Shown: piece by piece, positions 32,701 through 47,177 of the stretch
Numbering within the stretch: position 1 is the first letter of the stretch
Layout: every line of letters begins with the position of its first letter
NCBI GenBank assembly: GCA_014728075.1
Contig: WJMG01000075.1
Span: 4,262 to 68,261 of the forward strand
Source: Candidatus Omnitrophota bacterium
GTDB lineage: Bacteria > Omnitrophota > Gorgyraeia > Tantalellales > Tantalellaceae
Direction of reading: 5' to 3'
DNA: 64,000 nt
Notes under the pieces: model-generated
Told to the model about the DNA's origin: nothing
Seen by the model: only the letters and a program-made list of their open reading frames with translations
Database searches by the model: none
Made by a program: the position numbers and the translations under genes

Positions 32701-34311
32701 TTCCCTTATGGGATCTATGGCGGGATTGGTAACCTGGGCGAAAAGCTGCTTGAAATAATTATAGAGGACCTGCGAATGTTTCGAAAGTATCGCGTGAGGC
32801 GTATCGTTCCCCATCGCGCCGATAGGCTCTTTACCTTCCCTGGCCATAGGGACTATTATCTCTTTAAGGTCTTCCCGGGAATACCCGAACGACTTGAGCA
32901 GTGAAGTCACCTCCTCTTTCTCTTCTTTGGCCGGCCCACCGGAGGACAGGTCATCCATTTCAACAAGATTGTCCCTGACCCACCTGCCGTAATCCTGCCG
33001 CCCGCAGACATCTTTCTTTACATCTTTGTCCTCTATTATCTTTCCGGCTTCGGTATCGATAAAAAATATCTTTCCGGGTTCGAGCCTGCCCGACTTGAGT
33101 ATGTCGGCGGGATCGATATCCAGCACTCCCACCTCGGAAGCCATTACGACGGTATCGTCCTTGGTAACTATGTACCGGGCGGGTCTAAGACCGTTACGGT
33201 CGAGCACGGCGCCTATCCTGGTGCCGTCCGTAGCGGCGATGGCCGCCGGTCCGTCCCATGGTTCCATGAAACAGGAATGGAATTTATAAAAATCCCTTAG
33301 CTCCTTATCCATGAGATCATTATGCTCCCAGGCGCCGGGAACGAGCATCAGCATGACATGGGGCAGGGACCTTCCTGAAAGCTCCAGGAGCTCGAAAACA
33401 TTATCTATCGTGGCGGAATCACTGCCGCCTTCGACTATAACGGGTTTTATCTTCTCCAGGTCCCGTCCGAAATCGCCGCTTTCGAGAAGCCCTTCGCGGG
33501 CGCGCATCCAGTTTATGTTGCCCCTTAAAGTGTTTATCTCTCCGTTATGGGCAAGAAAGCGGAAAGGCTGGGCGAGGTCCCATGTAGGGAAAGTGTTCGT
33601 ACTGTACCGGGAGTGCACAAGAGCCAGGGACGAAACGACATCTTTCTCCCTGAGGTCGACAAAGTAATCTTTTACCTGATGCGGCATCAGCAGACCCTTG
33701 TAGCTCAATGTCCTGGAAGAAAGATTGGTTATGTAGAAAAAGGACTTCTGTTCAATAGTCGAAGCCTTAACCTGTTTTTCAGCTATCCTCCTGATAACAT
33801 AAAGCTTCCGTTCGAAGTCCATTATCGCGTTTACCGACCCGCCCGCTTTTATGATAGGCTGTTTGATGACCGGCTGGGTCTCGAGGGCGCCTTTGCCTAT
33901 GATCGAATCGTCCACGGGAACTTCTCTCCAGCCCAGAAATTCCTGTCCTTCTTCCTTTACGGCCTTTTCCAGGGTTTTCTCGCAAAAATCCCTGTCTTCC
34001 GGCTCTTCCGGAAGGAAAACAAGCCCGGTCCCGTATTCCCCCGCCGCAGGAAGCTCTATTCCCAGCGTTTTGACGGACCTTCGAAGAAAAGCGTCCGGCA
34101 TCTGTATAAGTATCCCCGCGCCGTCACCGGTCTCGGGATCAGCGCCTACCGCCCCTCTGTGGCTCATGTGCTCAAGGACATTTATGGCTTTGCTGATTAT
34201 GTCGTAAGACCTCTCTCCTTTTACATTGCAGACAAACCCTACACCGCAGCTGTCGTGCTCGAAAAAAGGGTCGTAAAGGCCCTGTTTCGGAGGTAAATGC
34301 TTAAATCCCAT
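29779..34311 (-). CDS. gltB: glutamate synthase large subunit
   Basis: 1510 aa; N-terminal Ntn amidotransferase (FEHDSCGVGF), FMN and 3Fe-4S domains, C-terminal GXGXG beta-helix. Confidence 0.95.
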   Translation of the reverse strand: MGFKHLPPKQGLYDPFFEHDSCGVGFVCNVKGERSYDIISKAINVLEHMSHRGAVGADPETGDGAGILIQMPDAFLRRSVKTLGIELPAAGEYGTGLVFLPEEPEDRDFCEKTLEKAVKEEGQEFLGWREVPVDDSIIGKGALETQPVIKQPIIKAGGSVNAIMDFERKLYVIRRIAEKQVKASTIEQKSFFYITNLSSRTLSYKGLLMPHQVKDYFVDLREKDVVSSLALVHSRYSTNTFPTWDLAQPFRFLAHNGEINTLRGNINWMRAREGLLESGDFGRDLEKIKPVIVEGGSDSATIDNVFELLELSGRSLPHVMLMLVPGAWEHNDLMDKELRDFYKFHSCFMEPWDGPAAIAATDGTRIGAVLDRNGLRPARYIVTKDDTVVMASEVGVLDIDPADILKSGRLEPGKIFFIDTEAGKIIEDKDVKKDVCGRQDYGRWVRDNLVEMDDLSSGGPAKEEKEEVTSLLKSFGYSREDLKEIIVPMAREGKEPIGAMGNDTPHAILSKHSQVLYNYFKQLFAQVTNPAIDPIREEVVMSLESYVGSQKNILGETPEHAHKLRIKEPVLMDHELEKIRGIDEKGFRTATISTLFNASDKKAFKQALDRVCLDAEKAIEDGYSFVILSDRGVDREHAALPALLAAGAVHQFLVKKALRSRIGLIVESGEPREVHHFALLFGYGADCVNPYLALKAVSELVGEKRLRSDAGTAHLNYRKAVNKGIMKILSKMGISTLKSYRGAQIFEAIGLGEEVVDRCFTGTPSRIGGADIDTIARETLSRHKEAFPEVETLKTDNLVTGGIYQWKKDGEKHLWNPESIAALQDAVWNSDYRKYRSFSEMINDQSDTPVTLRSLLKFRKNTPVPLEEVEPEGEIVKRFATGAMSFGSISRGAHESLAIAMNRLGGRSNTGEGGEDPARFVPMPNGDSARSAIKQVASGRFGVTTNYMVNSDELQIKIAQGAKPGEGGQLPGHKVSAVIARTRYTTPGVTLISPPPHHDIYSIEDLAQLIFDLKNTNPGARISVKLVSEVGVGTIAAGVAKGHADMILISGADGGTGASPKSSIRHAGLPWELGLSETHQTLVLNDLRSRVRLQTDGQMRTGRDVAVAAMLGAEEYGFCTAALITVGCVMLRHCNLNNCSVGVATQDDLLQKRFRGRPEYVETYMRFVIRELREIMAELGIRKLDELIGRTDLLEVNRDIIPEKARGLDLSRILYKPQVAPEVGTRCERAQDHCIDSVLDRELISLAEKAVKNEEKVEIELPIRNVNRTTGAMLSGAVCMEHGERGLPEGTIHCRFRGEAGQSFGAWLAKGITFELEGLANDYVGKGMSGGKIVIYPGKRSDYDPGQNIIIGNTTFYGAISGEAYIKGVAGERFCIRNSGVYAVAEGVGDHGCEYMTGGRAVIIGPTGRNFGAGMSGGIAYIYDEDGSFPAKCNMDMVDLEEPEEGDRETIHNLLHNHLNYTGSEKAKKILDNMHEAIGRFVKVMPIEYKRVLEARKMEEKLGLAETFDG

Positions 34312-34328
34312 CGGTCACCTTTTCCGGT

Positions 34329-34550
34329 TCAAATTCTGTACTTTTTGACATCTATCCCGAGCTTCCGTATCTTCAGCCTGAGAGTATTCCTGTTTATTCC
34401 CAGAAGCTTCGCGGCGATCGACTGGTTGCCGAAAGCCCTTTTCAGGGCTTTTTCAATAAGCAGTTTTTCAGTACCGCTGATCACCCTGTCGTAAACGCAT
34501 CCCGTATCCGCCGCCGAAAAAACCTCATCGATATTAATATCTTCCCTCAT
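34329..34550 (-). CDS. Fis-family helix-turn-helix DNA-binding protein
   Basis: 73 aa; C-terminal HTH_8 (EKALKRAFGNQSIAAKLLGINRNTLRLKIRKLGI); first gene of the unit containing gltB. Confidence 0.6.
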   Translation of the reverse strand: MREDINIDEVFSAADTGCVYDRVISGTEKLLIEKALKRAFGNQSIAAKLLGINRNTLRLKIRKLGIDVKKYRI

Positions 34551-34628
34551 AACGCTCTCCTGGAATTAGGTTAGTGTTGAACGGTATTTCCAGGACTCCG
34601 CGAACAGGTCTTTTGTATTTCGCCCTTG

Positions 34629-34669
34629 AAATAAAAAAAGCCTTACCAAGCGTCGGAGCTTGATAAGGC
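34629..34669 (-). terminator. rho-independent terminator inside the leader of the fis-like/gltB unit
   Basis: Minus-sense GCCUUAUCAAGC-uccgac-GCUUGGUAAGGC (12-bp stem) followed by UUUUUUUAUUU. Confidence 0.6.
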
Positions 34670-34787
34670 GTCTTTGCCTTAAAGCGAAGTCTTACAGACC
34701 TTTATGAAGCCTAAAAACTCATCGATGAGCATCGGAACTCCCGGGACCGCCCGGTCCCCGGTTCGGTACAGCTTCACTCAGGTGCCC

Positions 34788-34816
34788 ATTCTACCATTCA
34801 TAAATACATATGTCAA
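34788..34816 (-). promoter_or_regulatory. sigma70-like promoter TTGACA - 17 nt - TAGAAT
   Basis: Consensus -35, 17-nt spacer, 5/6 -10; fires towards the terminator and the fis-like gene. Confidence 0.5.
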
Positions 34817-34851
34817 TATGTAAATCCGGCGGTTTTTGAGCCTTTTTAGGC

Positions 34852-35571
34852 TTATAATCGCTCATTTTCCGACCGGTATCGCATTATGTTCTCGAAGTTA
34901 CGGCATATCCTATAGGCCTCATTTTCAAGAGTTTTTCTGAAGTTTTTCTCATCTTCAAGTAATTTTCCGGCCTTTTCAGAGTATTCCTTTCCCTCTTCGG
35001 AATATTCCTTTATCCACCTTTTCACCATCTCCGAAGTAACCTCGAAATGAAATTGAAGCCCGTAGGCATGATCTCCGATCCGGAAGGCCTGGTTGGGACA
35101 GAGCTCTCCGGCAGCGAGGGCCTCCCCATCAGGCGGAATATCGAAAGTATCCTCGTGCCACTGAAAGACCCTCATCACCTCTCCCATTCCGCTGAAAAGA
35201 GGGTCTTCTCTGCCCTTTTCGGTCAATTCCGCGGTATAATAGCCTATCTCGGGTACAGGAGACCTTTTTACGGCCGCGCCGAAAGTTTTTGCCAGCAGCT
35301 GTGCCCCGAGACAGATGCCCATAAACGGTATTCCGCGGTCCGCGGCTTTTCGGATGAACTTACACTCTTCGGACAGGTAAGGGTATTTTCCCTCTTCGTA
35401 AACATTCATGGGCCCTCCGAGGACGATAATACCGTCAGTGCCTTCGGGACTTTGCGGCAGCCTGTCTCCCTGATAAAGGTCTATTGTCACGGAGGGATGA
35501 TCCGCGTTATCGAAAAAGTCCCCTATAAGCCCCGGGCCCTCAATGGAAATGTTCTTTATGTAAATTATCAT
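34852..35571 (-). CDS. class I glutamine amidotransferase-like protein
   Basis: 239 aa; catalytic-triad context GICLGAQLL and HED. Confidence 0.8.
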   Translation of the reverse strand: MIIYIKNISIEGPGLIGDFFDNADHPSVTIDLYQGDRLPQSPEGTDGIIVLGGPMNVYEEGKYPYLSEECKFIRKAADRGIPFMGICLGAQLLAKTFGAAVKRSPVPEIGYYTAELTEKGREDPLFSGMGEVMRVFQWHEDTFDIPPDGEALAAGELCPNQAFRIGDHAYGLQFHFEVTSEMVKRWIKEYSEEGKEYSEKAGKLLEDEKNFRKTLENEAYRICRNFENIMRYRSENERL

Positions 35572-35672
35572 ATGGCCCTTCTAACGGCCGCAGGCCACTG
35601 ACAGCAGACAACATATTTTCATACGCGGTCCTTTGTCGGTGGCCCGTTGCCGGCGGATCTTCTTCTATATTA

Positions 35673-36014
35673 CTACCCTATCGCCTCGTGCCCGGTCTCT
35701 CCGGTCCGTATGCGGATGCAATCGGCGAGATCCAGGACGAGTATCTTCCCGTCCCCTATATTTCCGGTCCTCGCTCCTTTTACGATAGCGTCTATAGTAG
35801 GCTGGACGAACTCCTTGTTCACCGCTATCTCAAGCCTTATCTTCTTGAGAAGGTTCACTTCGTGGACCACGCCCCTGTATGTCTCGGTAAAACCTTTCTG
35901 CTGGCCGCAACCGAGCGCGTTAGTAACTGTCATCTTATGTATGTCCGCCTCAAAAAGCGCTTTTTTGACATCGGGCAGCTTGTGAGGCTGTATCATCGCT
36001 ACTATCAACTTCAT
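35673..36014 (-). CDS. glnK: nitrogen regulatory protein P-II
   Basis: 113 aa from [10 protein letters not shown]; T-loop (GFTETYRG) and B-loop (TGNIGDGKI); AAGGAG Shine-Dalgarno sequence. Confidence 0.9.
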
Positions 36015-36091
36015 GGCGATCACTCCTTGTTCAGTTATTAGTTAAGAGCCTCCGGACCGGACCGGTTCTTTCTCCGGACCCGTACTCTGAA

Positions 36092-37438
36092 CTACTGCGT
36101 TGTAAAGATCTGGAAACCCGAATACGCCTCCATGCCGTGTTCGGTTATGTCCAGGCCTTTGAGTTCTTCTTCCCTCGAGACCCTGAGCCCGATAACCGCG
36201 TTGATGGTCTTGAAAACAACTGTCATGGCTACCAGGACGAACGCTACTACGGCAAAAGCGCCGAGCGCCTGTATGCCGAGCTGTTCAAATCCCCCTCCGT
36301 GCAATAGGCCGTCACGGGCAAGCCCCAGAGCTTTACGCCCGAATATACCTACGGCGAGGGTCCCCCAGATACCGTTGACCATATGCACGGGGACAGCGCC
36401 TACCGGATCGTCTATCTGGACCCTGTCAAGGAACAAGGTCGCGGCTACTACCAGTATACCCCCGATGGCCCCTATCAGAAGAGCTTCGGCAGGTATGACA
36501 TACGCGCATGGCGCCGTTATGGCCACAAGGCCGGCCAGAGCGCCGTTCATGGTCATGGTCAGATCGGGCTTTCCGCACTTTTTCCAGGCGTAGAACATTG
36601 CCACGAGAGCTCCGCTGACGGCCGAAAGGTTCGTGTTAACGGCAACCTTGGCTATAAGGCTTCCGTCACCGACAGCAAGCGTGGATCCCGGGTTGAACCC
36701 GAACCAGGCAAACCACAGTATAAGGGCTCCCAGCGAGGCCAGGGCCATGGAATGCCCTTCTATGGCATTGGCCGAACCGTCCTTATTGTATTTACCTATT
36801 CTCGGGCCCAGCACCATGGTCCCTACCAGCGCGGCCGTGCCGCCGACGGCGTGTACCACCGCGGATCCCGCGAAATCGCCGAAACCCAGCCCGGCGAGCC
36901 AGCCGCCGCCCCAGACCCAGTGGCCTACGAAGGGGTACACGGCAGCCGATATAATGAAAGAATACATGAGATACGCTTTGAACTTCATCCTTCCCGCGAT
37001 GCCTCCCGCGACTATGGTCGCGGCCGCTCCGCAAAATACGGCGTGGAAGAACCAGGTAGCCTCAAGCGGAAGCGCGCCTTCGTGTGCGGCGTTTATGAGC
37101 ATCCATCCTTCCCAGCCCATGAAACCGTTTCCCTTGCCGAACATTATGGCGTACCCGAACATGAAAAATCCCATTGAAGCCATGCAGAAGTCCAGAAAGT
37201 TGTTCATCAGGACATTACATACATTCTTCGTCCTCAACAGACCCGCTTCAAGCATACCGAAACCGGCCTGCATGATAAAGACCATAAAGGCCGCTATCAT
37301 CACCCAAAGGGTATCGATACCGGTAGTAGTGGCATACTTTTCCGTTCCCTCGGCCAGGGCGGGCCCGGCGAGAAAGCCGAACGCGAAAGCGGCAGAGGCG
37401 GCAGCGAATACCGTTCTTCTTAACCATCCCCTCTTCAT
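36092..37438 (-). CDS. amtB: ammonium transporter Amt
   Basis: 448 aa, signal peptide plus 11 TM helices, Amt signature. Confidence 0.95.
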   Translation of the reverse strand: MKRGWLRRTVFAAASAAFAFGFLAGPALAEGTEKYATTTGIDTLWVMIAAFMVFIMQAGFGMLEAGLLRTKNVCNVLMNNFLDFCMASMGFFMFGYAIMFGKGNGFMGWEGWMLINAAHEGALPLEATWFFHAVFCGAAATIVAGGIAGRMKFKAYLMYSFIISAAVYPFVGHWVWGGGWLAGLGFGDFAGSAVVHAVGGTAALVGTMVLGPRIGKYNKDGSANAIEGHSMALASLGALILWFAWFGFNPGSTLAVGDGSLIAKVAVNTNLSAVSGALVAMFYAWKKCGKPDLTMTMNGALAGLVAITAPCAYVIPAEALLIGAIGGILVVAATLFLDRVQIDDPVGAVPVHMVNGIWGTLAVGIFGRKALGLARDGLLHGGGFEQLGIQALGAFAVVAFVLVAMTVVFKTINAVIGLRVSREEELKGLDITEHGMEAYSGFQIFTTQ

Positions 37439-37459
37439 CTCTCTCCTCCTTTTCGGTTA

Positions 37460-37503
37460 AAAAAGATAAGGCGCCTTCCGGCCTACACGGCCAAAAGACG
37501 CCT
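37460..37503 (-). terminator. terminator-like hairpin with U-tract in the amtB(1) leader
   Basis: Minus-sense GGCG..GGCCGUGUAGGCC..CGCC followed by UUAUCUUUUUU, about 40 nt upstream of the amtB ATG. Confidence 0.4.
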
Positions 37504-37531
37504 TCGTCGTTACCATTACCCGTAATATCGC

Positions 37532-37582
37532 GCACATCACTGTGCTTGATAATACAAGTAAACCGGGGATGGTTATGGTAAC
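37532..37582 (-). promoter_or_regulatory. conserved nitrogen-operon upstream element, copy 1
   Basis: About 50 nt shared with copy 2 at 40648..40702: GTTACC-N9-CCGGNTTTACTTGTATTATC(A/G)AGCAC-N6-GTGC. Confidence 0.5.
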
Positions 37583-37659
37583 TTTTATTTAAGGTTTGTT
37601 CGTAAAGGAGACCGGAACAGCCCGGAACTATACCCCGTTCTCTTTATCCGATACTCTTT

Positions 37660-38001
37660 TTAACCTATCGCCTCACTTCCCGTCTCCCCTGTCCTTATCC
37701 TTACACATTCCGCGAGATCCATAACAAAGATCTTCCCGTCTCCTATATTGCCCGTCCTCGCCCCTTTTACGATAGCGTCTATAGTGGGCTGGACGAAGTC
37801 CTTGTTAACCGCTATCTCCAGCCTTATCTTCTTGAGAAGGTTCACTTCGTGGACCACGCCCCTGTATGTCTCGGTAAAACCCTTCTGCTGGCCGCAGCCG
37901 AGGGCGTTGGTGACCGTCATCTTGAAGACCTCGGCCTCGTACAAAGCCTTCTTAACATCGGGCAGTTTGTGCGGCTGTATCATCGCTACTATAAGTTTCA
38001 T
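37660..38001 (-). CDS. glnK: nitrogen regulatory protein P-II (second copy)
   Basis: 113 aa from MKLIVAMIQ; AAGGAGGG Shine-Dalgarno sequence. Confidence 0.9.
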
Positions 38002-38013
38002 GACCACCCTCCT

Positions 38014-39360
38014 TTATTTGGATTCTGTCGCGAATATCTGGAACCCGGCATAGGACTCCATACCGTGTTCGCCTATATCCAGCCCTTTAAGCTGTTCCTC
38101 ATCGGAAGCCCTCAGGCCCATGGTCAGCTTAATAATACCGAAAAGCGCGAAGGCGGCCCCGAAAGTCCACAGAAAAACCGAACCCACACCTACGGCCTGC
38201 GTTATTAACTGGGACAGACCTCCACCGAAGAAAAGGCCGTTGGCTCCCCCGTAGGCCTCCTGGGCGAACAGCCCGACGGCAAGGGTGCCCCAGGCTCCGC
38301 ATACGCCGTGTACGGAGACCGCGCCGACGGGATCGTCGATCCTGAGGACCTTGTCGATGAACTCGACGCTGAAAACTACCAGTATCCCGGCTACCGCACC
38401 TATGATGATCGCGCTGGAGGGAGATACATTGGCGCAACCCGCGGTTATTCCGACAAGCCCGGCCAGCGCGCCGTTAAGCGACATACTGACATCCGGCTTA
38501 CCGAACTGCAGCCAGACCGTTATCATGGCCGCCACCGCGCCCGCGGCCGCCGCAAGATTGGTAGTAACCGCTATTACCGCTATGCTCAGGTCGGTACCGG
38601 CCGTCGTACTGCCGGCGTTGAAACCGAACCATCCGAACCACAATATGAACACACCGAGCGCGGCAAGAGGTATGTTATGGCCCTGTATGGCGTTGGATGA
38701 CCCGTCACTGTTATACTTACCGAGTCTTGGCCCCAGAAGCAGGGCTCCGGCGAGAGCCGCCCATCCGCCTACCGAATGCACTACGGTGGACCCGGCAAAA
38801 TCGATCATTCCTTTCGCCGAAAGCCATCCGCCTCCCCATATCCAGTGCCCCACTACCGGATATATAACAGCGGTAAGAAAAGCGCTGTAGGCCAGATAGG
38901 AAGAGAACTTGGTCCTTTCCGCCATCGCTCCCGAAACGATAGTGGCCGCGGTCGCCGCGAACACCGCCTGGAAGATCCAGAAAGTGAACTGCCAGAGACC
39001 GTCGGCGGTCGACGGGTCGGCACTGCTTAAAAAGAAACCGCTCTTTCCGAAAAGCCCGAAAGCGCTCGCCCCGAACATTATCGCGAAACCCACGGCCCAG
39101 TAAGCCAGTGAACCTACGGCGAAATCCATAAGGTTCTTCATCATTATGTTACACGCGTTCTTGGCCCTGGTAAACCCGGTTTCCACCATCGCGAAACCGG
39201 CCTGCATGAAAAACACCAGTATCGCGGCGAGAAGGGTCCACACGGTGTCGATAGCCACCGCGTTGGAAGCCGCTGTGGCCCCGTCATCCCCCCACGCCCG
39301 CGGCACCAGACCAAGGACCAGAGCCGGCATTATCCTGAGTATTTTACTTAACATCTTCAT
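38014..39360 (-). CDS. amtB: ammonium transporter Amt (second copy)
   Basis: 448 aa; paralogue of 36092..37438. Confidence 0.95.
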   Translation of the reverse strand: MKMLSKILRIMPALVLGLVPRAWGDDGATAASNAVAIDTVWTLLAAILVFFMQAGFAMVETGFTRAKNACNIMMKNLMDFAVGSLAYWAVGFAIMFGASAFGLFGKSGFFLSSADPSTADGLWQFTFWIFQAVFAATAATIVSGAMAERTKFSSYLAYSAFLTAVIYPVVGHWIWGGGWLSAKGMIDFAGSTVVHSVGGWAALAGALLLGPRLGKYNSDGSSNAIQGHNIPLAALGVFILWFGWFGFNAGSTTAGTDLSIAVIAVTTNLAAAAGAVAAMITVWLQFGKPDVSMSLNGALAGLVGITAGCANVSPSSAIIIGAVAGILVVFSVEFIDKVLRIDDPVGAVSVHGVCGAWGTLAVGLFAQEAYGGANGLFFGGGLSQLITQAVGVGSVFLWTFGAAFALFGIIKLTMGLRASDEEQLKGLDIGEHGMESYAGFQIFATESK

Positions 39361-39394
39361 GATATCCTCCTTCCCGTATCCTAATGGTACAGGA

Positions 39395-40222
39395 TCAATA
39401 AGAGAATCCTAATGTCACCCCGCCGAAGAACTCGTTCTCCTGCGCGTCGTTATAGGTATCCCTGTCCAGTATTACCGAATAGGAAACATTGGGCACCAGA
39501 TAAAAATGGTTGAAGAACGGTATTGTAACATCAAGCGACAAAAGCATATCGCTCCATCCGTGTTTATCCGTCCACTGTTCGTAATTGTAGCCGAAGGCAG
39601 CGCCTATATCGGCCGTGATATCGTTCCCCAGGTCAAAAGTATGTCCGCCGCCGAACTGGAGATATGAACCGTGGCCGGCTTCGACATCCCAGTACCAGGT
39701 AAAGAAAGGCTGGAGGAGAATGTCGTAAGAAGTTCCCACAAAGACCTCATGGGAAGTGGCTCCCTTCTCATCCAGGTCCATGTTGGGAAAAGTGTAAAAG
39801 GTATATCCCATCGAAATGCTCCACGGGTCCAGCGCCTCCGCGTCTTCAACGCCCATGTAACCCATCATCTCTCCGACGGAAAACTCGTAACTGGCTGTAT
39901 AATCAAGTTCAGTAAGCTCCTGGTACGACCCGTTCGCCTTGTCGCGGCTCATGCTGTAGTTCCCCCAGAGATCCAGAGTGAACCCGTATTTTGACAGGTT
40001 GACATCGAACTGCATTACCGGGGCGTCGACCAGGTTCTGCCCTCTCCAGATGTACTTGCTCATGAAAGCGGTGCTTGCGTCAAGATCGGGCATGCCCTCC
40101 GGCTTCGCGGGCAGATAATCCTCCTCCATGTCAAGTACGGCATGAGCGCTCGCGCACATTAAGGTAATCCCCGCAAAAAGCGTGAACGCCCTCAAAAAGA
40201 TCTTTTTCCTGAAACTGCACAT
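39395..40222 (-). CDS. putative outer-membrane porin (beta-barrel)
   Basis: Start at MCSFRKK with AAGGAGGG Shine-Dalgarno; signal peptide; alternating aromatic/hydrophilic strands; ends GFSY. Confidence 0.5.
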   Translation of the reverse strand: MCSFRKKIFLRAFTLFAGITLMCASAHAVLDMEEDYLPAKPEGMPDLDASTAFMSKYIWRGQNLVDAPVMQFDVNLSKYGFTLDLWGNYSMSRDKANGSYQELTELDYTASYEFSVGEMMGYMGVEDAEALDPWSISMGYTFYTFPNMDLDEKGATSHEVFVGTSYDILLQPFFTWYWDVEAGHGSYLQFGGGHTFDLGNDITADIGAAFGYNYEQWTDKHGWSDMLLSLDVTIPFFNHFYLVPNVSYSVILDRDTYNDAQENEFFGGVTLGFSY

Positions 40223-40518
40223 GATACCCTCCTTCTTTTCGTTTTCGAGAGACTTTCTCCCCCTGATATGTAACATTCTTCCACCGACATGACCTCCAGG
40301 TCAAGCATTTTGATCCCTTTTCCGAACATGCGCTCGAAGTCAGATGTGATCCTCGGCAACTCCTCTCCCGTAACATATGCTTCTATTCTGACATCGAACC
40401 ATATTTCGGGGATTTCACCGAAGTCGAGGACCAGCATCCTTTTCACTCCGGCCCCGGAAAGTCTTGAAAGGACCGGGTCCAGCTCGGAGCGTTCGCACCT
40501 TAACTCGATCTTCTTCAT
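40192..40518 (-). CDS. small PII-like (GlnB-fold-like) protein, function unknown
   Basis: 108 aa from MKKIELRCERSELDPVLSRLSGAGVKRMLVLDFGE (AGGAGGGGAAGG Shine-Dalgarno sequence); the N-terminal pattern mirrors GlnB. The 3' end overlaps the porin start by 31 nt. Confidence 0.4.
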   Translation of the reverse strand: MKKIELRCERSELDPVLSRLSGAGVKRMLVLDFGEIPEIWFDVRIEAYVTGEELPRITSDFERMFGKGIKMLDLEVMSVEECYISGGESLSKTKRRRVSCAVSGKRSF

Positions 40519-40532
40519 CCTTCCCCTCCTTT

Positions 40533-40580
40533 CTTTAAAAAAAAGCGCCCTGCCCCTTCCCGAATCTCCGGAAAGAGAGG
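40533..40580 (-). terminator. hairpin plus U8 tract in the leader of the PII-like/porin/amtB operon
   Basis: Minus-sense CUCUUUCC-ggagauucg-GGAAGGGG ... GGGCGCUUUUUUUU, about 20 nt upstream of the Shine-Dalgarno sequence. Confidence 0.35.
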
Positions 40581-40647
40581 ACGCCCTTGTCAAAAAAGAC
40601 ATTCCTCCCGGAACGCCTTTGTCTGATAACATCTTTGTGTTCTTTTA

Positions 40648-40702
40648 CCGTGCACTGCTACGTGCTCGATAATACAAGTAAATCCGGATACTTTCCGGTA
40701 AC
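40648..40702 (-). promoter_or_regulatory. conserved nitrogen-operon upstream element, copy 2
   Basis: See copy 1; contains CCGGATTTACTTGTATTATCGAGCACGTAGCAGTGCACGG. Confidence 0.5.
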
Positions 40703-41223
40703 TACATAAGCTCTTCCTTGAGCGCCGAGCATTTTTCCCTTATGTTCTTAGTTATCTTCCCCACCATTACATGCGAAACCCCTATTTTATCGCCTATCTC
40801 CCTGGTGGTGTAACCTTCCAACCTGTAGAAAAACACATTCTTTTCCCTTTCCGTGAACATTGACTCCGTTTCGTCCAGAAGAAGGTATATCTCCAGGGTC
40901 CCCGTATCCTTTGTATAACTATCGGAGACCAGGGTATCCTCGATGGTGATATCCTCCTCGATAGGGGTATACATGCTGATGGAATTCCTGTCCACGCTCT
41001 TGCATATTTTCCTTATATAGTTCTTCAGGAAGAAATATGACCCCTGAAGTATATAGCTGTCGGTCTTTCCTTCCAGCTCGCCGTTCTCGAACCTTAGCCA
41101 GAGGTCAAGAAGGGCTTCCTGAAAGAAATCGTCCTCGTCGCAGTAAGAATATCTGTTCCTTACCTTGTACGAAATAGCTCTTATCCTGGGCGAATATTTT
41201 GCGAGAACATCTTCGTAGCTCAT
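40702..41223 (-). CDS. RNA polymerase sigma factor, sigma-70 family (ECF-sized)
   Basis: 173 aa from MSYEDVL; region 2 (FFQEALLDLWLRF) and region 4 HTH (REKNVFFYRLEGYTTREIGDKIGVSHVMV). Confidence 0.7.
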   Translation of the reverse strand: MSYEDVLAKYSPRIRAISYKVRNRYSYCDEDDFFQEALLDLWLRFENGELEGKTDSYILQGSYFFLKNYIRKICKSVDRNSISMYTPIEEDITIEDTLVSDSYTKDTGTLEIYLLLDETESMFTEREKNVFFYRLEGYTTREIGDKIGVSHVMVGKITKNIREKCSALKEELM

Positions 41224-41254
41224 CCTGACCACCTCCTTTTTTGGCTTTATAAAG

Positions 41255-41300
41255 AAAAAGCCCTTTCGGGTCCTTTTCAGGACCCGAAAGGGCTTCGATG
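41255..41300 (-). terminator. rho-independent terminator after the GAF-ANTAR gene
   Basis: Minus-sense GAAGCCCUUUCGGGUCC-ugaaaa-GGACCCGAAAGGGCUU followed by UUUUCUUUAU. Confidence 0.75.
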
Positions 41301-41440
41301 CCTTAACCCGGCCGCGGGCTTTATGAACTAAAAAAGAGGCTTCCATTCCGGTAAGCCTCTTCGCGTTTTGTACATCCGTGTACGACTTTTATTATACTAC
41401 TTTCCCGGATCAAAGTCAACAACTATCGTCTTTCACAAGG

Positions 41441-42148
41441 TCACTTTTTACCGCCCGATATCTCGAAGGACAGTATAACGGCCTCTGCCACTTCCTTCAT
41501 GGAAATACGCTTGTTCATGCTGGACTTCCTCAAGAGCTTGTATGCCTCGTCCTCGGAAAGGTCCTGCTGCCTCATCAGAATACCCTTTGCTTTCTCGACC
41601 TTTTTCCTGGTCTCGAGCTCTTCCTGGATCACTTTGGTCTTTACCATCAGTTCTGTATTCTCTATCGCTACAGCCGCCTGGTTGGCGACGGCGCTCAGAA
41701 GTTCAATATCACTTTTGGTAAAATCGTGTTTCTCGACCGTGTAAACATTTATAACGCCTATGACCTTTTCCTTGACCATCATAGGCACGCTTAACATCGA
41801 AATAAGGCCTTCTTTCTTCGCGAGCTGCTTTTCCTTATACCTGTCGTCCTGGGAAACATCCTTTATAACAAGCGGCTCGGCTTCTTCGGCTACCAGGCCC
41901 ACTATACCCTCCCCCACCTTTATGGCCCTTTCTTTCAGATATTCCTGGCTCATTGCCTGCGTTGCCCTTATCCTGAGTTCCCCGGCTTCTTCGTCGAGAA
42001 GCCAGAGAGCGCATATTTCGGCCCCCATGACACCCGCGGTGAGATTAACGATCAGCTTAAGTATATCCTCGAGGTAAAGGTCGCTGGTTATAGCGTGGCT
42101 TATCCTGGTCAAGGTCGAAAGATATTCTTTTTCAGAAGATTTCGGCAT
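41441..42148 (-). CDS. GAF-ANTAR RNA-binding antitermination regulator
   Basis: 235 aa; N-terminal GAF domain, C-terminal ANTAR motif (AKGILMRQQDLSEDEAYKLLRKSSMNKRISMKEVAEAVI). Confidence 0.8.
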   Translation of the reverse strand: MPKSSEKEYLSTLTRISHAITSDLYLEDILKLIVNLTAGVMGAEICALWLLDEEAGELRIRATQAMSQEYLKERAIKVGEGIVGLVAEEAEPLVIKDVSQDDRYKEKQLAKKEGLISMLSVPMMVKEKVIGVINVYTVEKHDFTKSDIELLSAVANQAAVAIENTELMVKTKVIQEELETRKKVEKAKGILMRQQDLSEDEAYKLLRKSSMNKRISMKEVAEAVILSFEISGGKK

Positions 42149-42264
42149 GATTTTTCCCCGGTTTAAATATTTATCGCTGCCCTGTCCTCGGGCATTCTCG
42201 AAACATATCCCCCGCTTTCACCCGGGCTTCTTCGCCGCGGAAGTTCCCGGGACATTCCGAGTTT

Positions 42265-42297
42265 ATGAGTTACGGGCGCAAAGCGCCCGTAACTCAT
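42265..42297. repeat. 33-nt perfect palindrome ATGAGTTACGGGCGC-AAA-GCGCCCGTAACTCAT
   Basis: 15-bp perfect inverted repeat with a 3-nt centre, 9 nt past the glnN stop codon and upstream of the GAF-ANTAR gene. Confidence 0.8.
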
Positions 42298-42306
42298 GTG
42301 CTCATT

Positions 42307-44400
42307 TTACATCATGAAGAGCATTTCCGCGTAAGACGGGAGCGGCCAGATCTCGTCCGGAAGAAGTTCTTCCAGACGGTCGACGGCTACTCTGAGCTCG
42401 TTCATAGCGTCTATCTTTTCGGAAGCCTTGCCTCCAAGAGCGGCTTCGAGTTCCTTTATACCCTTGAGCATCTTCTCGGTCTCGCCGCCTACTTCCTTGA
42501 GAAGGTCCATAGTACCGTCCGACTTGCACCCGCATGTTTTCATGTCATCTATGGTCCCCGCGAGCGAAGACTGGTACTCCAGGGCTATGGGAACTATCAT
42601 TGTCCTGGCCATTTTGAGCGCGACACTGGCTTCGATAGTAATGGTCTCTTCATACTGCTCCTCGTAGATATCGTGCCTTGAAGCCAGCTCCTCGGGTGTG
42701 AGGACTTTATGTTTCTTGAACATCTCGATCACTTTAGGATCTTTTGTAGCTTCGAGAGCCGCTTCGGTGTTCCTCAGGTTCGGAAGCCCTCTCTTTTCGG
42801 CTTCCTTGTGCCAGTCTTCGGTATAATTATCACCGTTGAAGAGTATTCTTTTATGTTTTTTGACTATACCCTGAAGCACGACCTGTAGAGCTTCGTTAAA
42901 ATCCTTACCGGATTTCACATCAGACTCGAGTTCCGTGCATATCTCATCGAGAGCATCCGCGACTATAGTGTTAAGCACGATGTTAGGCCCGGCGCAGCTC
43001 TGGTTGGATCCCGGCGCCCGGAACTCGAACTTATTCCCCGTAAAGGCGAAGGGGCTCGTCCTGTTCCTGTCAGTCACATCTTTGGGAAGCTGCGGCAGGG
43101 AATCCACCCCGAGTTCAAGGAGATCCGCCTGCTTTGAGCTTTTTGCGCCACCCTTTTCTATCTGGTCGATTATATCCGTAAGCTGGTCTCCCAGAAATAT
43201 GGACAGTATCGCCGGCGGAGCCTCGTTAGCGCCCAGCCTGTGGTCGTTACCGGCGGTAGCTACCGAAGCTCTAAGCATCGGCGCGTTAGTATCGATCGCC
43301 TTCATGAGCGCGCATATCATGGTAAGGAACTTGGCGTTCTCGTGCGGATTATCCCCCGGGGAAAGCCAGTTCTTGCCGTCCGGACCGACCACCGACCAGT
43401 TGTTATGCTTACCCGATCCATTGACCCCGGCGTATGGTTTTTCGTGAAGAAGGCATACAAAACCGTGCTTTTCCGCCACCTTTTTCAGCGTCTCCATACA
43501 TATCATGTTGTGATCTATCGAAAGGTTCTGCTCCTCAAAAACCGGAGCTATCTCGAACTGCGCCGGACAGACCTCGTTGTGACGGGTCTTTGCCGGTATA
43601 CCCAGCCTCCAGAGCTCCCTGTCCAGATCGTCCATAAAGGACATGACCCTTGTCCTGATAGCTCCGAAGTAATGATCGTCCATCTGCTGGTGTTTAGCCG
43701 GGGCGCTGCCGAAAAGGGTCCTTCCCGTCTGTATCAGGTCAAGCCTGGCTTCGTAAAACGACCTGTCGACAAGAAAATATTCCTGTTCGGGGCCGAGGGT
43801 GGCGTAAGCTCTCTTGTCTTTAGTGTCTATACCGAAAAGCCCAGCCAGGCGGCATACCTGTTTTGAGAGAGCCGCGACCGACCTTAAAAGAGGTGTCTTC
43901 TTGTCAAGCGCTACCCCTGTATAGGAATAGAAAGCCGTCGGGATGCACAGGGTCGCCCCTATTTCCCCTTTCTTTATGAAAGCGGGCGAAGTCGGGTCCC
44001 ATGCGGTATACCCTCTGGCTTCGAAGGTAGCCCTGAGCCCTCCGGACGGAAAACTTGAAGCGTCCGGCTCGCCTTTAATAAGCTCATTGCCGGAAAATTT
44101 CATAATAACGCCGCCTTCCTGGTCCGGCTCTATGAAAGAATCGTGTTTTTCGGCCGTCGCCCCCGTGAGCGGCTGGAACCAGTGGGTAAAATGGGTCGCG
44201 CCCTTAGCGACCGCCCAGGTCTTCATGGCGTCGGCGACCTCGTCGGCTATGGAAGGGTCTATCGTCTTGCCTTCCTTTATTGTCGCGATAAGCGAACCAT
44301 ACGCTTTTTCCGAAAGGTAATTGCGCATGTTCTTGATGCTGAAAACATTCTCGCCGTAAATATCCGCTACCGACCTTACTCCCATTTCTTCCTTACACAT
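42307..44400 (-). CDS. glnN: glutamine synthetase type III
   Basis: About 697 aa from MCKEEMGV (AAGGAGG Shine-Dalgarno sequence); length and conserved segments typical of GSIII (GlnN). Confidence 0.9.
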   Translation of the reverse strand: MCKEEMGVRSVADIYGENVFSIKNMRNYLSEKAYGSLIATIKEGKTIDPSIADEVADAMKTWAVAKGATHFTHWFQPLTGATAEKHDSFIEPDQEGGVIMKFSGNELIKGEPDASSFPSGGLRATFEARGYTAWDPTSPAFIKKGEIGATLCIPTAFYSYTGVALDKKTPLLRSVAALSKQVCRLAGLFGIDTKDKRAYATLGPEQEYFLVDRSFYEARLDLIQTGRTLFGSAPAKHQQMDDHYFGAIRTRVMSFMDDLDRELWRLGIPAKTRHNEVCPAQFEIAPVFEEQNLSIDHNMICMETLKKVAEKHGFVCLLHEKPYAGVNGSGKHNNWSVVGPDGKNWLSPGDNPHENAKFLTMICALMKAIDTNAPMLRASVATAGNDHRLGANEAPPAILSIFLGDQLTDIIDQIEKGGAKSSKQADLLELGVDSLPQLPKDVTDRNRTSPFAFTGNKFEFRAPGSNQSCAGPNIVLNTIVADALDEICTELESDVKSGKDFNEALQVVLQGIVKKHKRILFNGDNYTEDWHKEAEKRGLPNLRNTEAALEATKDPKVIEMFKKHKVLTPEELASRHDIYEEQYEETITIEASVALKMARTMIVPIALEYQSSLAGTIDDMKTCGCKSDGTMDLLKEVGGETEKMLKGIKELEAALGGKASEKIDAMNELRVAVDRLEELLPDEIWPLPSYAEMLFMM

Positions 44401-44448
44401 GACTACCTCCTTGGATTGTATGACACACACTAAATTTTACTCTTTTTC

Positions 44449-44584
44449 GCCTGAAAAAGAAAGAACATCCTTTCCGGGCCGCTATAAAAGAAGCCTTAAA
44501 AGGATGTTCTTCCCTGAACTTCCCGTTTATCCCTCACAACAAAGTGGGGGTAAAAAGAAAAGGCACTCCCGTAAAAGGAATGCC
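44449..44584 (-). promoter_or_regulatory. glnN leader with two terminator-like hairpins (candidate attenuator)
   Basis: Hairpin 1 GGCAUUCC-uuuuac-GGGAGUGCC plus UUUUCUUUUU (44551..44584). Hairpin 2 AGAACAUCCUUUU...AAAGGAUGUUCUU plus UCUUUUUC (44449..44510). Confidence 0.5.
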
Positions 44585-44690
44585 TCTTTGCTTTCAAATC
44601 CGCACTGCTTCGTGCAGTTTTTATTTTACCCTATTCCTGAATTTTGTCAACATCTTTTTTTGCCCGCTTTTCCCGCTTCTTCTGCCTGCC

Positions 44691-45392
44691 TTTTGTACCG
44701 GGTTCCGACCCCACTTTGTACCGGGTACGAACATAAAGCTGTAGCTGTCCCCTCAGTTTTTTGAAAGAATTACATCAAAAAAGTTGTATCTAATAGTGAG
44801 GGGGGATATTTATACGATCGTGTAAAAATCAACACAACCAACAGGAGGTGCTCAAAATGTCCAGAACGAAAAGAATACTTATCGACAACAGTTATTACCA
44901 CATAATAAACAGGGGAAATCGAAAAAAAGAGATCTTCAAACATGGATCAGATTACAGGCATTTTCTCTCTCTACTTAAAAAGGCGAAGAAAAAACATAAA
45001 GTAAAGATAAACGCTTACTGCTTAATGCCGAACCATATACATATCATCGCTTATATCCGGGAAGCAAAGACCATCTCCAGCTTAATGCACTATGTTTCCC
45101 GAAATTACGCCTCGTATTTTAATTCCAGATATGAAAAAGTAGGCCATCTTTGGCAAAGCAGGTTCAAGAGTTATCCTCTTCTCACGGAAGAATATTTGAT
45201 ACATGTGGCCAATTATATTGAAATAAACCCGGTAAAAGCAAAGATAGTGGATGACCCATCAAAATACACCTGGAGCAGTTACAATGAAAGATGCCTTATG
45301 CAAAAACAGTATCTTCTGGATCCTATTACGGTATAGGGACAGGTACAAGTTCAGATCGGTACCCGGTACAAAGCTGACACGGTACCCGGTAC
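44691..45392 (+). mobile_element. REP-RAYT-REP unit (REP-associated tyrosine transposase flanked by inverted REP sequences)
   Basis: IS200-like Y1 transposase ORF bracketed by inverted copies of a ~45-bp element GGGGACAG(G/C)TAC..-N8-GTACCCGGTACAAAG. Confidence 0.7.
44857..45336 (+). CDS. REP-associated tyrosine transposase (IS200/IS605 TnpA-like, Y1 HUH)
   Basis: 159 aa from ATG 44857 (AGGAGG Shine-Dalgarno sequence); HUH motif NHIHII and a downstream Tyr-containing helix (YVSRNYASYFN). Confidence 0.8.
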   Translation: MSRTKRILIDNSYYHIINRGNRKKEIFKHGSDYRHFLSLLKKAKKKHKVKINAYCLMPNHIHIIAYIREAKTISSLMHYVSRNYASYFNSRYEKVGHLWQSRFKSYPLLTEEYLIHVANYIEINPVKAKIVDDPSKYTWSSYNERCLMQKQYLLDPITV

Positions 45393-45399
45393 TGTTTTG

Positions 45400-45714
45400 T
45401 TACTTCCGTATCATCACCAGCACCATCTTAACCCTTTCCGGCGCACTCACGGAATGAGGGACATCCGCCGGCATTATTATGGACTCGCCCGCCGATAGCC
45501 CGTGCTTCTCACCGGCTATGGTGACTTCCGCGCGGCCGTCCACCACATTGACAAGAGCATCGAAAGGCGCGGTGTGCTCACTGAGCCCCTGATCCTTGTC
45601 AAAAGCGAAAACCGTAACGGTACTTTCCTTGTCTATTATCGCCCTGCTGACCACGGACCCTTCCTGGTAATCTATAAGGTCGCCGTATTTGAACACTTTA
45701 GCTTTTATATCCAT
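45400..45714 (-). CDS. cupin domain protein
   Basis: 104 aa from MDIKAKV (AAGGAG Shine-Dalgarno sequence); conserved-barrel cupin pattern (G...H..P.D). Confidence 0.65.
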   Translation of the reverse strand: MDIKAKVFKYGDLIDYQEGSVVSRAIIDKESTVTVFAFDKDQGLSEHTAPFDALVNVVDGRAEVTIAGEKHGLSAGESIIMPADVPHSVSAPERVKMVLVMIRK

Positions 45715-45805
45715 TTCAACTCCTTTCCACAGCGTCGAGCGTAAAGAAAACCCCGCCGGTCCGATACGGCGATACATCTCACCTCTTCAAGCTGAACGCT
45801 AAGGG

Positions 45806-46660: not shown

Positions 46661-47072
46661 GGGTATTCTCCGTGTCTTCCAGAAGATCTCTGACCGTTAT
46701 ATTCCTGAATTCATCTGCCAGTTTCTTTTCTATCTTCTTCAACCTTTTTCTCAGAGGGCAGGTCGAGCGATTCGGACATACTCTCTTCCGGAACATGCAC
46801 TCTGATATCTGTATGTCGCCCTGGTAAAGTTCGATCAGTTCGCTTACTGAAATATCACCGGGCTTCTTTACCAGCCTGACCCCTCCTCCGGCGCCCTCCC
46901 TGGAAACCAGATATCCCTCCCGCACCAGGTCCTGGAGTATCCGCCTGACAAAATGCAAAGGGATATCCTGTCTTTCGGATATTTCTCTTGATGAGACCAC
47001 CGATTCTTTCCGGCCCGCGAGGTATACGATCGCCCTGACGGCGTAATCTGTATTTTTATTCAACAGGTTCAT
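46620..47072 (-). CDS. Rrf2 family transcriptional regulator (three-Cys, likely Fe-S binding)
   Basis: 150 aa; wHTH N-terminus (TDYAVRAIVYLA) and C-x5-C-x5-C cluster (ECMFRKRVCPNRSTCP) like IscR/NsrR. Confidence 0.85.
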   Translation of the reverse strand: MNLLNKNTDYAVRAIVYLAGRKESVVSSREISERQDIPLHFVRRILQDLVREGYLVSREGAGGGVRLVKKPGDISVSELIELYQGDIQISECMFRKRVCPNRSTCPLRKRLKKIEKKLADEFRNITVRDLLEDTENTHEKKDNTNKREKV

Positions 47073-47086
47073 GCGTCCTCCGACGC

Positions 47087-47115: not shown

Positions 47116-47177
47116 AGGCAAAGTCAAGTCTTTTTTTGATGATTATCCGGTCAAAAAACAGGTATCAGCAGGAAGGC

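Follow-up and report, generated by a model that had tools for sequence, protein, structure and literature searches.

How is nitrogen assimilation regulated in Candidatus Omnitrophota? The question is raised by a block of nitrogen-assimilation genes of ~16 kb (28158-44650) in contig WJMG01000075.1 of a Candidatus Omnitrophota genome (GCA_014728075.1), of which we analysed 64,000 nt (positions 4,262-68,261; hereafter 'the window', to which coordinates refer). According to profile searches and the open reading frame (ORF) listing, the genes of the block are all on the minus strand, as are its promoters, hairpins and terminators described below. They form five transcription units, namely glnN with the gene of a GAF-ANTAR regulator; a sigma factor gene; a PII-like/porin-like/amtB/glnK operon; an amtB/glnK/glutamine amidotransferase (GATase) operon, the leader of which we call amtB1; and an operon coding for a Fis-type helix-turn-helix (HTH) protein, GltB and GltD. 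An initial annotation of this DNA had proposed ANTAR-type antitermination, on the grounds of terminators in the leaders, a shared GCAC-N6-GTGC hairpin and the GAF-ANTAR gene. Our analyses support that proposal. The dual-hexaloop geometry of the leaders, the overlap of one hairpin with each terminator, conservation, strand bias, covariation and the linkage with the GAF-ANTAR gene indicate that this nitrogen regulon is very probably governed after transcription initiation, by the locus-encoded GAF-ANTAR protein acting through antitermination in the leaders.

The GAF-ANTAR protein, a predicted one-component antiterminator, is encoded at 41441-42148 (GAF, 3e-25; ANTAR, 2e-21). Its ANTAR domain (PF03861) scores 75.9 bits for a cut-off of 27.3, and it matches the solved chains 6wsh ('Response regulator', 2e-10), 1s8n ('putative antiterminator', 1.8e-9) and 4akk ('Nitrate regulatory protein', 1.5e-6), which we take to be EutV, Rv1626 and NasR, respectively. 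The closest relatives of the GAF domain are the N-terminal GAF domains of PtsP/EI-Ntr (1e-20) and NifA (1e-19; Nlh1), with structure matches to 3ci6 (phosphoenolpyruvate-protein phosphotransferase, 7.7e-18), 3trc and 4g3k. For GAF domains of the PtsP/NifA type, the effectors are 2-oxoglutarate and glutamine, or PII proteins. By analogy, 2-oxoglutarate and/or glutamine, or a PII protein, would most likely be sensed here; general nitrogen status is the likely signal because of these relatives.

Terminators and hexaloop hairpins in the five leaders

Eight strong intrinsic terminators were found in the five leaders, with folding free energies (dG) of -11.7 to -34.1 kcal/mol. The gltB and amtB1 leaders have one each, and the PII-like, sigma and glnN leaders two each. 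They include all five hairpins with U-tracts of the initial annotation, in the gltB, amtB1, PII-like and (twice) glnN leaders, to which we add terminator 1 of the PII-like leader and both terminators of the sigma leader. Terminator statistics were computed at dG <= -12, a threshold of <= -8 having flagged many hairpins inside ORFs. The amtB1 terminator falls outside the rule of the pattern scanner, as its U-tract begins 3 nt after the stem, and it was identified separately.

A short hexaloop hairpin with a C-G closing pair (C-[A/G]NNGNN-G), hereafter P2, is present at all eight terminators. In each case its 3' arm consists of the first 6-11 nt of the terminator 5' arm, so that the two structures are mutually exclusive. 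All eight P2 loops have G at position 4 (G4), with A at position 1 (A1) in six and G at position 1 (G1) in two. The stem has at least 3 bp in six cases; the exceptions are those of sigma terminator 1 (2 bp) and glnN terminator 1 (2 bp, an A·A mismatch, then 3 bp). By themselves these P2 structures have little stability, with +0.9 to -6.6 kcal/mol compared with the -11.7 to -34.1 kcal/mol of the terminators, as expected of a structure needing stabilization by a protein. Under a strict rule (stem of >=3 bp, [AG]NNGNN loop, overlap with a terminator), 6/8 window elements qualify, for a background of 15/307 terminator-like hairpins on the antisense strand of the related loci described below (p = 3.5e-7).

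A second hexaloop hairpin of the P1 type lies 5' of every first terminator. The ANTAR target as defined by Ramesh et al. (2012) comprises two hairpins of at least 3 bp with A1/G4 hexaloops, separated by a linker of 5-12 nt in the Enterococcus faecalis eut leader, the second of which overlaps the terminator (PMC3369931). The predicted leader elements have the form of ANTAR dual-hairpin antiterminators. Their P1-P2 linkers are 4-12 nt long in the elements of glnN terminators 1 and 2, sigma terminator 1 and gltB.

The glnN operon is preceded by a sigma-70-type promoter (TTGACA-16-TAAAAT, 44623-44650) that matches the consensus at 11/12 positions; orthologous glnN leaders keep a TTGACA/TAAAAT promoter. 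Next comes a canonical P1, CTGCAC-GAAGCA-GTGCGG (44600-44617), located 4 nt from P2, GAAAGC-AAAGAG-GCATTC (44578-44595; A1, G4), which contains the A·A mismatch and overlaps terminator 1 (44552-44588 with its U-tract, -17.4 kcal/mol) by 11 nt. The region 44580-44610 is a hit of the covariance model presented in the next section. The second element consists of a candidate P1', CAC-TTTGTT-GTG (44535-44546; G4), for which the scanner chose the alternative register CTTT-GTTGTG-AGGG, and of P2', GTTC-AGGGAA-GAAC (44506-44519; A1, G4), overlapping terminator 2 (44454-44514 with its U-tract, -28.1 kcal/mol) by 9 nt. At the P2' position the orthologues have GGAT-AAAGAC-GTCC.

In the sigma leader, a sigma-70-type promoter (TTGACT-17-TATAAT, 41391-41419) is followed by P1, GTAC-ACGGAT-GTAC (41370-41383; A1, G4), and by the 2-bp P2, GC-GAAGAG-GC (41355-41364; G1, G4), which overlaps terminator 1 (41330-41361, -14.4 kcal/mol); the model hit spans 41353-41383. 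The GC-GA[AT]GAG-GC form of this P2 recurs in orthologous glnN leaders. Further downstream are P1', AGCCC-GCGGCC-GGGTT (41305-41320; G4), and P2', GGC-ATCGAA-GCC (41291-41302; A1, G4; model hit 41290-41311), with a 6-nt overlap with terminator 2 (41251-41296, -34.1 kcal/mol).

The PII-like leader starts with a P1-type hairpin, GCAC-GTAGCA-GTGC (40652-40665; G4). An intermediate hexaloop with a weak stem, ACAC-AAAGAT-GTTA (40627-40640), which the model takes for P1, separates it from P2, GAC-AAAGGC-GTT (40612-40623; A1, G4). The latter overlaps terminator 1 (40592-40617, -11.7 kcal/mol) by 6 nt, and the corresponding hit at 40611-40640 is the best of the model in the window (16.1 bits). P2', GAC-AAGGGC-GTC (40580-40591; A1, G4; model hit 40579-40607), overlaps terminator 2 (40537-40586, -24.6 kcal/mol) by 7 nt. 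The amtB1 leader is built similarly, with a P1-type 5' hairpin, GCAC-AGTGAT-GTGC (37532-37545; A1, G4), an intermediate hexaloop, TATT-ACGGGT-AATG (37514-37527; A1, G4), located 5 nt 5' of P2, and P2 itself, GAC-GAAGGC-GTC (37497-37508; G1, G4), which shares 8 nt with the terminator (37459-37504, -28.4 kcal/mol). In the closest related locus, L002, the counterparts of the 5' hairpin and of P2 are GCAC-ATTGCT-GTGC and GAC-GAGGGC-GTC.

Lastly, the Fis-HTH/gltBD operon has a sigma-70-type promoter with a TG extension (TTGACA-17-TAGAAT, 34788-34816). Its leader contains a weak-stemmed candidate P1, ATA-AAGGTC-TGT (34694-34705; A1, G4), 12 nt 5' of P2, TAAGGC-AAAGAC-GCCTTA (34664-34681; A1, G4; model hit 34666-34703, 15.6 bits), and P2 overlaps the terminator (34633-34669, -18.4 kcal/mol) by 6 nt. 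Two other hairpins were observed in this leader. A weak early one followed by a U-run, GCTC-ATCGAT-GAGT TTTTT (34713-34730), could represent a first attenuator that has degenerated; the gltB leaders of relatives contain two elements. The other, TATTTC-AAGGGC-GAAATA (34616-34633; A1, G4), is directly 3' of the gltB terminator and has no terminator of its own.

The GCAC-N6-GTGC motif of the initial annotation occurs four times in the window, for 0.40 occurrences expected, and none of 100 shuffled sequences reached four. Three occurrences are in the amtB1, PII-like and glnN leaders (37532-37545, 40652-40665 and 44602-44615), as had been described, and their loops, AGTGAT, GTAGCA and GAAGCA, all have G4, the first one having A1 as well. 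This palindrome is best described as a P1-type hairpin rather than as the universal diagnostic element, which is the predicted P2 hexaloop at the terminators, absent from the annotation.

No sigma-54-type -24/-12 sequence (TGGCAC-N5-TTGC, up to 2 mismatches) was found in any leader, in agreement with the initial annotation, and the whole window has 25 matches for 38 expected. The Rfam search of the whole window at gathering thresholds yielded only a thiamine pyrophosphate (TPP) riboswitch, and nothing in the leaders. At E <= 1, the 34300-44900 region gave only chance matches to microRNA-like hairpins. No riboswitch or other Rfam family thus explains the leaders.

Conservation in related loci and competing explanations

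Scanning genome contigs for the GAF-ANTAR gene, we retrieved 80 loci with orthologues 60-83% identical to that of the window, nearly all from metagenome-assembled genomes of Candidatus Omnitrophota. A further group, at 61-63% identity, is found in Syntrophaceae/Thermodesulfobacteriota. The gene order in the relatives is glnN-ANTAR-(sigma)-porin-amtB-glnK-(GATase)-FisHTH-gltB-gltD, and the consensus of their leader elements is xAAC-AAAGAA-GTTx, 2-6 nt, then GGC-AAAGAA-GCC fused to the terminator.

A covariance model, R1, was built from 17 dual-hairpin elements, all from loci other than the window; an element of locus L008 (L008:13482-13515) was left out of the seed because of a MAFFT misalignment. 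Used unfiltered on the window, R1 placed 6 of its 16 hits (E <= 10) within the 906 nt of the leaders, out of 128,000 nt searched (p ~1e-9). Over 79 related loci (1.07 Mb), 69 hits were on the strand of the ANTAR gene and a single one on the opposite strand. The scanner, which looks for complete P1+P2+terminator units, found 46 of them in sense and 0 in antisense orientation in the related loci. Similarly, P2 overlaps 127/457 sense terminators of these loci versus 15/307 antisense ones (p = 2e-17).

The R1 hits of the relatives have the features expected of ANTAR targets. Loops are exactly 6 nt long in 52/70 P1 and 66/70 P2 hairpins, the linker is 2-8 nt long, and the hexaloops have G4 in 118/118 cases and A1 in 110/118. 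In the alignment of the 70 hits, 94% of the cells are paired, and 89 cells carry double changes, compared with 29 ± 3.7 after shuffling (0/500 shuffles reaching the observed value), although pairing is inflated, to the detriment of the argument, since the alignment was fitted to the structure of the model. Sliding the partner by one to three columns reduced pairing to 11-43%.

Seven scanner or model hits were set aside as probable chance matches, those at 20444-20485, 2687-2741, 4932-4985, 10679-10708, 47092-47131 and 36076-36105 and an R1 hit in the gltB coding sequence, GGC-AAAGGC-GCC (33885-33908, minus strand; 14.1 bits, E 0.3), which has no terminator. Their E-values above 0.3, their location in coding sequences or at ordinary 3' ends and the absence of a P1+P2+terminator unit before a nitrogen gene led us to this conclusion.

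Several points weigh against control by antitermination through the GAF-ANTAR protein. Taken one by one, the R1 hits of the window are weak (E 0.1-6), as the motif is tiny, with only 7 base pairs, and the amtB1 element was not recovered by R1. A distance of 23-29 nt separates the well-formed GCAC hairpin from P2 in the amtB1 and PII-like leaders, as in L002, and at the canonical distance of 4-5 nt from P2 there are only the weak intermediate hexaloops; a 14-nt linker already crippled control by EutV (PMC3369931). The calculated dG values of the gltB P1 and of the amtB1 and PII-like intermediate hairpins are positive, and the P2 stems of sigma terminator 1 (2 bp) and glnN terminator 1 (A·A mismatch) are marginal. 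Transcription start sites are predicted from the sequence, and the proposed GAF ligand is guessed on the basis of homology. This uncultivated organism is known from metagenome-assembled genomes only. As the visible part of its genome is 64 kb, the actual regulator could be another ANTAR protein with its gene outside this part.

This last point belongs to a broader explanation, that the terminators are real attenuators under another control, be it a riboswitch, a small RNA, the PII-like protein or a distant ANTAR protein. The limited view of the genome leaves room for it, the leaders are 110-240 nt long with additional hairpins, and some related loci have a second, distant ANTAR paralogue (29-32% identity), located ~4 kb downstream of the GAF-ANTAR gene in L013, L014, L016 and L019. 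However, a tblastn search with the ANTAR domain detected no second ANTAR copy in the 64-kb window, and the leaders match no Rfam family, even at E <= 1. Moreover, what is conserved in them are exactly the ANTAR determinants, i.e. hexaloops, A1, G4, the C-G closing pair and the overlap of P2 with the terminator (PMC3369931), and in the ~80 loci, which were retrieved through the GAF-ANTAR gene, the elements are concentrated in the immediate surroundings of that gene. We consider a different controller improbable.

Another possibility is that the GAF-ANTAR protein binds the hairpins and acts mainly on mRNA stability or translation instead of termination, as reported for mycobacterial ANTAR targets, the terminators being constitutive partial attenuators. 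The 5'-terminal GCAC hairpins could guard against 5'-end-dependent decay, and two elements are separate from any terminator of their own, the A1/G4 hexaloop at 34616-34633 after the gltB terminator and a P2-like hairpin, GGC-GAAGAA-GCC (42225-42236), located 5' of the GAF-ANTAR gene with no U-tract terminator. Nevertheless, none of the elements overlaps a Shine-Dalgarno sequence, and P2 overlaps the terminator 5' arm in 8/8 cases in the window and far more often in sense than in antisense orientation in the relatives. This geometry makes sense only for antitermination, and we regard an effect on stability or translation as very unlikely.

Finally, the GCAC-N6-GTGC sequences might be DNA operators over the transcription start, bound by a dimeric repressor such as the Fis-type HTH protein, with terminators unrelated to them. 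They are perfect palindromes directly after the -10 region, a common place for operators, the cluster contains a gene for a small HTH_8 protein, and in two leaders the hairpin is too distant from P2 for a canonical ANTAR linker. In contrast, the orthologues show the signature of an RNA. Rather than losing the palindrome, which the initial annotation had regarded as a possible outcome unfavourable to its proposal, orthologous leaders keep it as (G/A)CAC-RNNGNN-GTG(C/T), which forms the P1 of many elements, with the CAC...GTG hairpin 2-6 nt from P2/terminator in most of them, as a canonical P1. Its outer pair in the relatives (35 cases) is G-C in 12, A-U in 8 and G·U in 7, and A-C never occurs; with G·U, an RNA helix is maintained whereas a DNA palindrome is not. 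G4 is strand-specific, occurring in 48 of the 101 CAC-N6-GTG sites read in sense versus 20 read in antisense, and the porin leader of L002 has at the same place a hexaloop hairpin of unrelated sequence, ATATGCC-GCTGAA-GGCATAT. We rejected the DNA-operator explanation, a highly improbable one, based on the G·U pairs and the strand-specific loop constraint. The GCAC-N6-GTGC sequence is thus a predicted P1-type hairpin of this lineage that acts as RNA, in view of the G·U and A-U replacements and the strand-specific G4. In the amtB1 and PII-like leaders, the 5' GCAC hairpin may be a third ANTAR site or a stabilizer of the 5' end.

The sigma factor, other genes of the block and the proposed circuit

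The second regulator of the block is an extracytoplasmic function (ECF)-like, sigma-70-family sigma factor of 173 aa (40702-41223; TIGR02937 sigma70-ECF, 57.1 bits for a cut-off of 42.9). It has regions 2 and 4 only, and the individual Pfam matches to these regions are below the cut-offs. The sigma factor called in the initial annotation is thus real, but the true start of its gene is at 41223; the longer ORF that begins at 41346 crosses its own leader terminators.

A promoter-like motif, GTTACC-N15-TTACTTGTA, is found 5' of the PII-like/porin-like/amtB/glnK operon (40672-40702) and again 5' of the amtB/glnK/GATase operon (37552-37582). A 15-mer identical in both amtB-type leaders is part of it. 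Across the window and the 80 loci, the strict motif, GTTACC-N15(16)-TTACTTGTA, has 16 occurrences, none of them on the antisense strand. It is present in 11/11 sources with the sigma gene and in 0/70 without it (p = 8e-14); one position is shortly 3' of the sigma gene, and the other is 5' of the second amtB or the GATase operon. In the loci devoid of the sigma gene, porin-amtB-glnK directly follows the ANTAR gene, with only attenuators between them. The sigma factor of the locus appears to supply the promoters of both amtB operons; the assignment of -35 and -10 elements inside the motif is putative. A near-copy of the TTTACTTGTATTATC box at 46635-46649 (plus strand) was rejected, as it has the wrong spacing to GTTAC and is antisense in a coding sequence. 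In L047, dense GTTACGAA-like repeats on both strands occupy ~2950-3200, between the first attenuator and the sigma gene.

The sigma gene itself is preceded by a sigma-70-type promoter and two ANTAR-type attenuators, and dual-hairpin elements are also present in most of the relatives' sigma leaders. There is no anti-sigma-like ORF adjoining the sigma gene, and its promoter is sigma-70-like, not of its GTTACC motif type. Control of the sigma gene seems to come from antitermination instead of an anti-sigma factor. The restriction of the motif to sigma-bearing loci suggests an ANTAR -> sigma -> amtB feed-forward cascade.

The proposed mechanism is as follows. In the default state, presumably nitrogen sufficiency, RNA polymerase would stop at the leader terminators, and the tandem terminators of the glnN, sigma and PII-like leaders would multiply the tightness of this off state. 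Upon nitrogen limitation, sensed by the GAF domain, a dimer of the GAF-ANTAR protein would bind the nascent leader at P1 and P2. With P2 held closed, the terminator could not form and the operon would be read through. As the GAF-ANTAR gene sits downstream of glnN, it is probably in positive feedback on itself. The sigma factor, made under ANTAR control, would initiate transcription at GTTACC-N15-TTACTTGTA before both amtB-glnK operons, which would need the ANTAR protein again for read-through, a coherent feed-forward loop. A more extensive proposal is that Omnitrophota control ammonium assimilation without NtrBC/sigma-54, by a three-tier circuit running from GAF-ANTAR to glnN, gltBD and sigma and from there to amtB-glnK, in which the GAF domain senses nitrogen directly and the sigma factor has no anti-sigma partner. 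We put it forward tentatively, as a possibility somewhat short of probable.

The gene identities given in the initial annotation were confirmed by profiles, except that the porin-like and PII-like ORFs have no family match (Pfam and NCBIfam for the latter). The glnN gene (42307-44430) codes for a type III glutamine synthetase (GSIII_N, 3.3e-78). The spacer of 158 nt between it and the GAF-ANTAR gene looks inserted, since the spacing is only ~10-40 nt in the relatives. In addition to the P2-like hairpin mentioned above, it contains a near-perfect hairpin of 16 pairs, 9 of them G-C (42264-42298), with no U-tract on the sense strand, which may be an RNA-stability or processing element.

The PII-like/porin-like/amtB/glnK operon (37660-40518), which has synteny in relatives, begins with a degenerate ORF, the true start of which is at 40518 (40192-40518). 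Its name is based on its position and on a weak match (28%, E 0.02) with L031, where this place is taken by a genuine PII-like gene. The PII signature is no longer recognizable in the window ORF, and L026, L031 and L053 have a recognizable PII-like gene at this position. The ORF overlaps the start of the next gene by ~30 nt (40192-40222); the latter codes for a porin-like protein with a signal peptide (39395-40222) and is followed by amtB (38014-39360) and glnK (37660-38007). The amtB/glnK/GATase operon (34852-37438) comprises amtB (36092-37438), glnK (35673-36023) and the gene of the class-I GATase (34852-35571). The Fis-HTH/gltB/gltD operon (28158-34550), also syntenic in relatives, is made of the gene of a 73-aa, stand-alone Fis-type HTH_8 protein (34329-34550), gltB (29779-34311) and gltD (28158-29789). 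The HTH_8 protein has no receiver or AAA+ domain. A stand-alone Fis-type HTH gene is conserved directly 5' of gltB in Omnitrophota (L008, L012, L018, L020, L028, L034, L038 and L058).

In the Thermodesulfobacteriota/Syntrophaceae loci (L077, 10792-17643, and also L068, L070, L076 and L078), a dual-hairpin element comes after the GAF-ANTAR gene, and further on are genes for a glutamate-synthase-domain protein, a GAF histidine kinase, an NtrC-type sigma-54 activator and a glutamine-dependent NAD synthase. The GAF domain of this kinase shares 55-57% identity (tblastn) with that of the GAF-ANTAR protein of the window. From this likeness, the same sensor domain seems to serve outputs at both the RNA and the DNA level in Thermodesulfobacteriota; only the RNA-level output is visible in the window.

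Immediately upstream of the glnN promoter and divergent from it is an IS200-like (Y1_Tnp) transposase gene (44848-45336, plus strand), with short direct repeats, CCCGGTACAAA, at ~44700-44740, between the gene and the promoter. The following genes (45400-49062, minus strand) code for a cupin, a 4Fe-4S ferredoxin-domain protein, an Rrf2-family regulator, a HycI hydrogenase maturation protease and a NiFe hydrogenase large subunit, and show no relation to the nitrogen cluster. The TPP riboswitch (RF00059) is at 22268-22376 (minus strand; 73.3 bits, E 1.5e-12).

Relation to known ANTAR systems and significance

In Geobacter, ANTAR antitermination was demonstrated in 2010 for the leaders of glnK-amtB and nif genes (PMC2995071), and multi-operon, tandem ANTAR regulons for PII, amtB and glutamine/glutamate synthases were described in 2012 (PMC3369931, PMC3369936). 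In Desulfotomaculum acetoxidans, for instance, at least 13 ANTAR elements were predicted in six transcription units (PMC3369931). The general principle found here is therefore not new, and current understanding is not overturned.

The GnfK/GnfR system of Geobacter is similar in that sigma-70-type promoters are followed by leader terminators before nitrogen genes, including the glnK-amtB operon. The GnfR site of Geobacter sulfurreducens, CAGGCAANGGCGCC, i.e. GGC-AANGGC-GCC (Ueki & Lovley 2010, PMC2995071), overlaps the terminator and has the same form as the window P2 sequences GGC-AAAGAC-GCC and GAC-AAGGGC-GTC. In both cases the antiterminator is one layer of a cascade. However, GnfR is a phosphorylated response regulator with a receiver (REC)-ANTAR architecture and a partner kinase, whereas the protein of the window is a one-component GAF-ANTAR. 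A DNA-binding two-component system, GnfL/GnfM, acts above the antiterminator in Geobacter; in the window it is the antiterminator that would act above an ECF-like sigma factor. The Geobacter targets are nif genes, unlike the assimilation genes (type III glutamine synthetase, glutamate synthase, amtB) of our organism, which belongs to the phylum Omnitrophota.

With the nitrogen regulons described in 2012, the window shares pairs of A1/G4 hexaloops, short linkers, the P2-terminator overlap and multiple or tandem elements distributed over several operons. Those regulons were predicted for Firmicutes, Proteobacteria and Actinobacteria rather than Omnitrophota, and the window differs from them by its local P1 form, (G/A)CAC-RNNGNN-GTG(C/T), and by two three-hairpin leaders with a long spacer. 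The RNA logic is also that of NasR of Klebsiella oxytoca (NIT-ANTAR) and EutV of Enterococcus faecalis (REC-ANTAR), and NasR is, like the GAF-ANTAR protein, a one-component sensor. Nevertheless, the sensor of the window is a GAF domain of the PtsP/NifA type, not NIT or REC; the predicted targets make up a whole assimilation regulon instead of a single operon; and the signal is presumably general nitrogen status, not nitrate or ethanolamine.

As far as the work cited in PMC4676874 is summarized there, NitR of Clostridium, an ANTAR-type protein, is encoded directly downstream of the glutamine synthetase gene glnA that it is thought to regulate. To the extent of that summary, the position of the antiterminator gene directly 3' of a glutamine synthetase gene is common to Clostridium and the window. 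Antisense RNA is reportedly also involved in the NitR system.

GAF-ANTAR was reported as an abundant but uncharacterized architecture in 2012, 2020 and 2025 (PMC3369931, PMC7496416, PMC12591593). Our literature searches, in which 'ANTAR' queries were flooded by 'Antarctic', found no paper on GAF-ANTAR function, on nitrogen regulation in Omnitrophota or on an ANTAR-gated sigma factor. The sigma cascade is the one element that may be new. If confirmed, it would represent, to our knowledge, the first case of a sigma factor placed under ANTAR antitermination within a coherent feed-forward loop. It would also illustrate, in compact form, how antitermination and an alternative sigma factor can be combined. 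There is also a practical consequence, in that annotation pipelines blind to these elements misread them, the sigma ORF having been called too long, across its own attenuators.

If the proposed mechanism is correct, GAF-ANTAR proteins would have their first assigned function. The eight natural target sites in a 10-kb block, together with the ~80 orthologous loci, make this function testable. More generally, these analyses show how Omnitrophota, an uncultivated phylum, probably regulates nitrogen assimilation.

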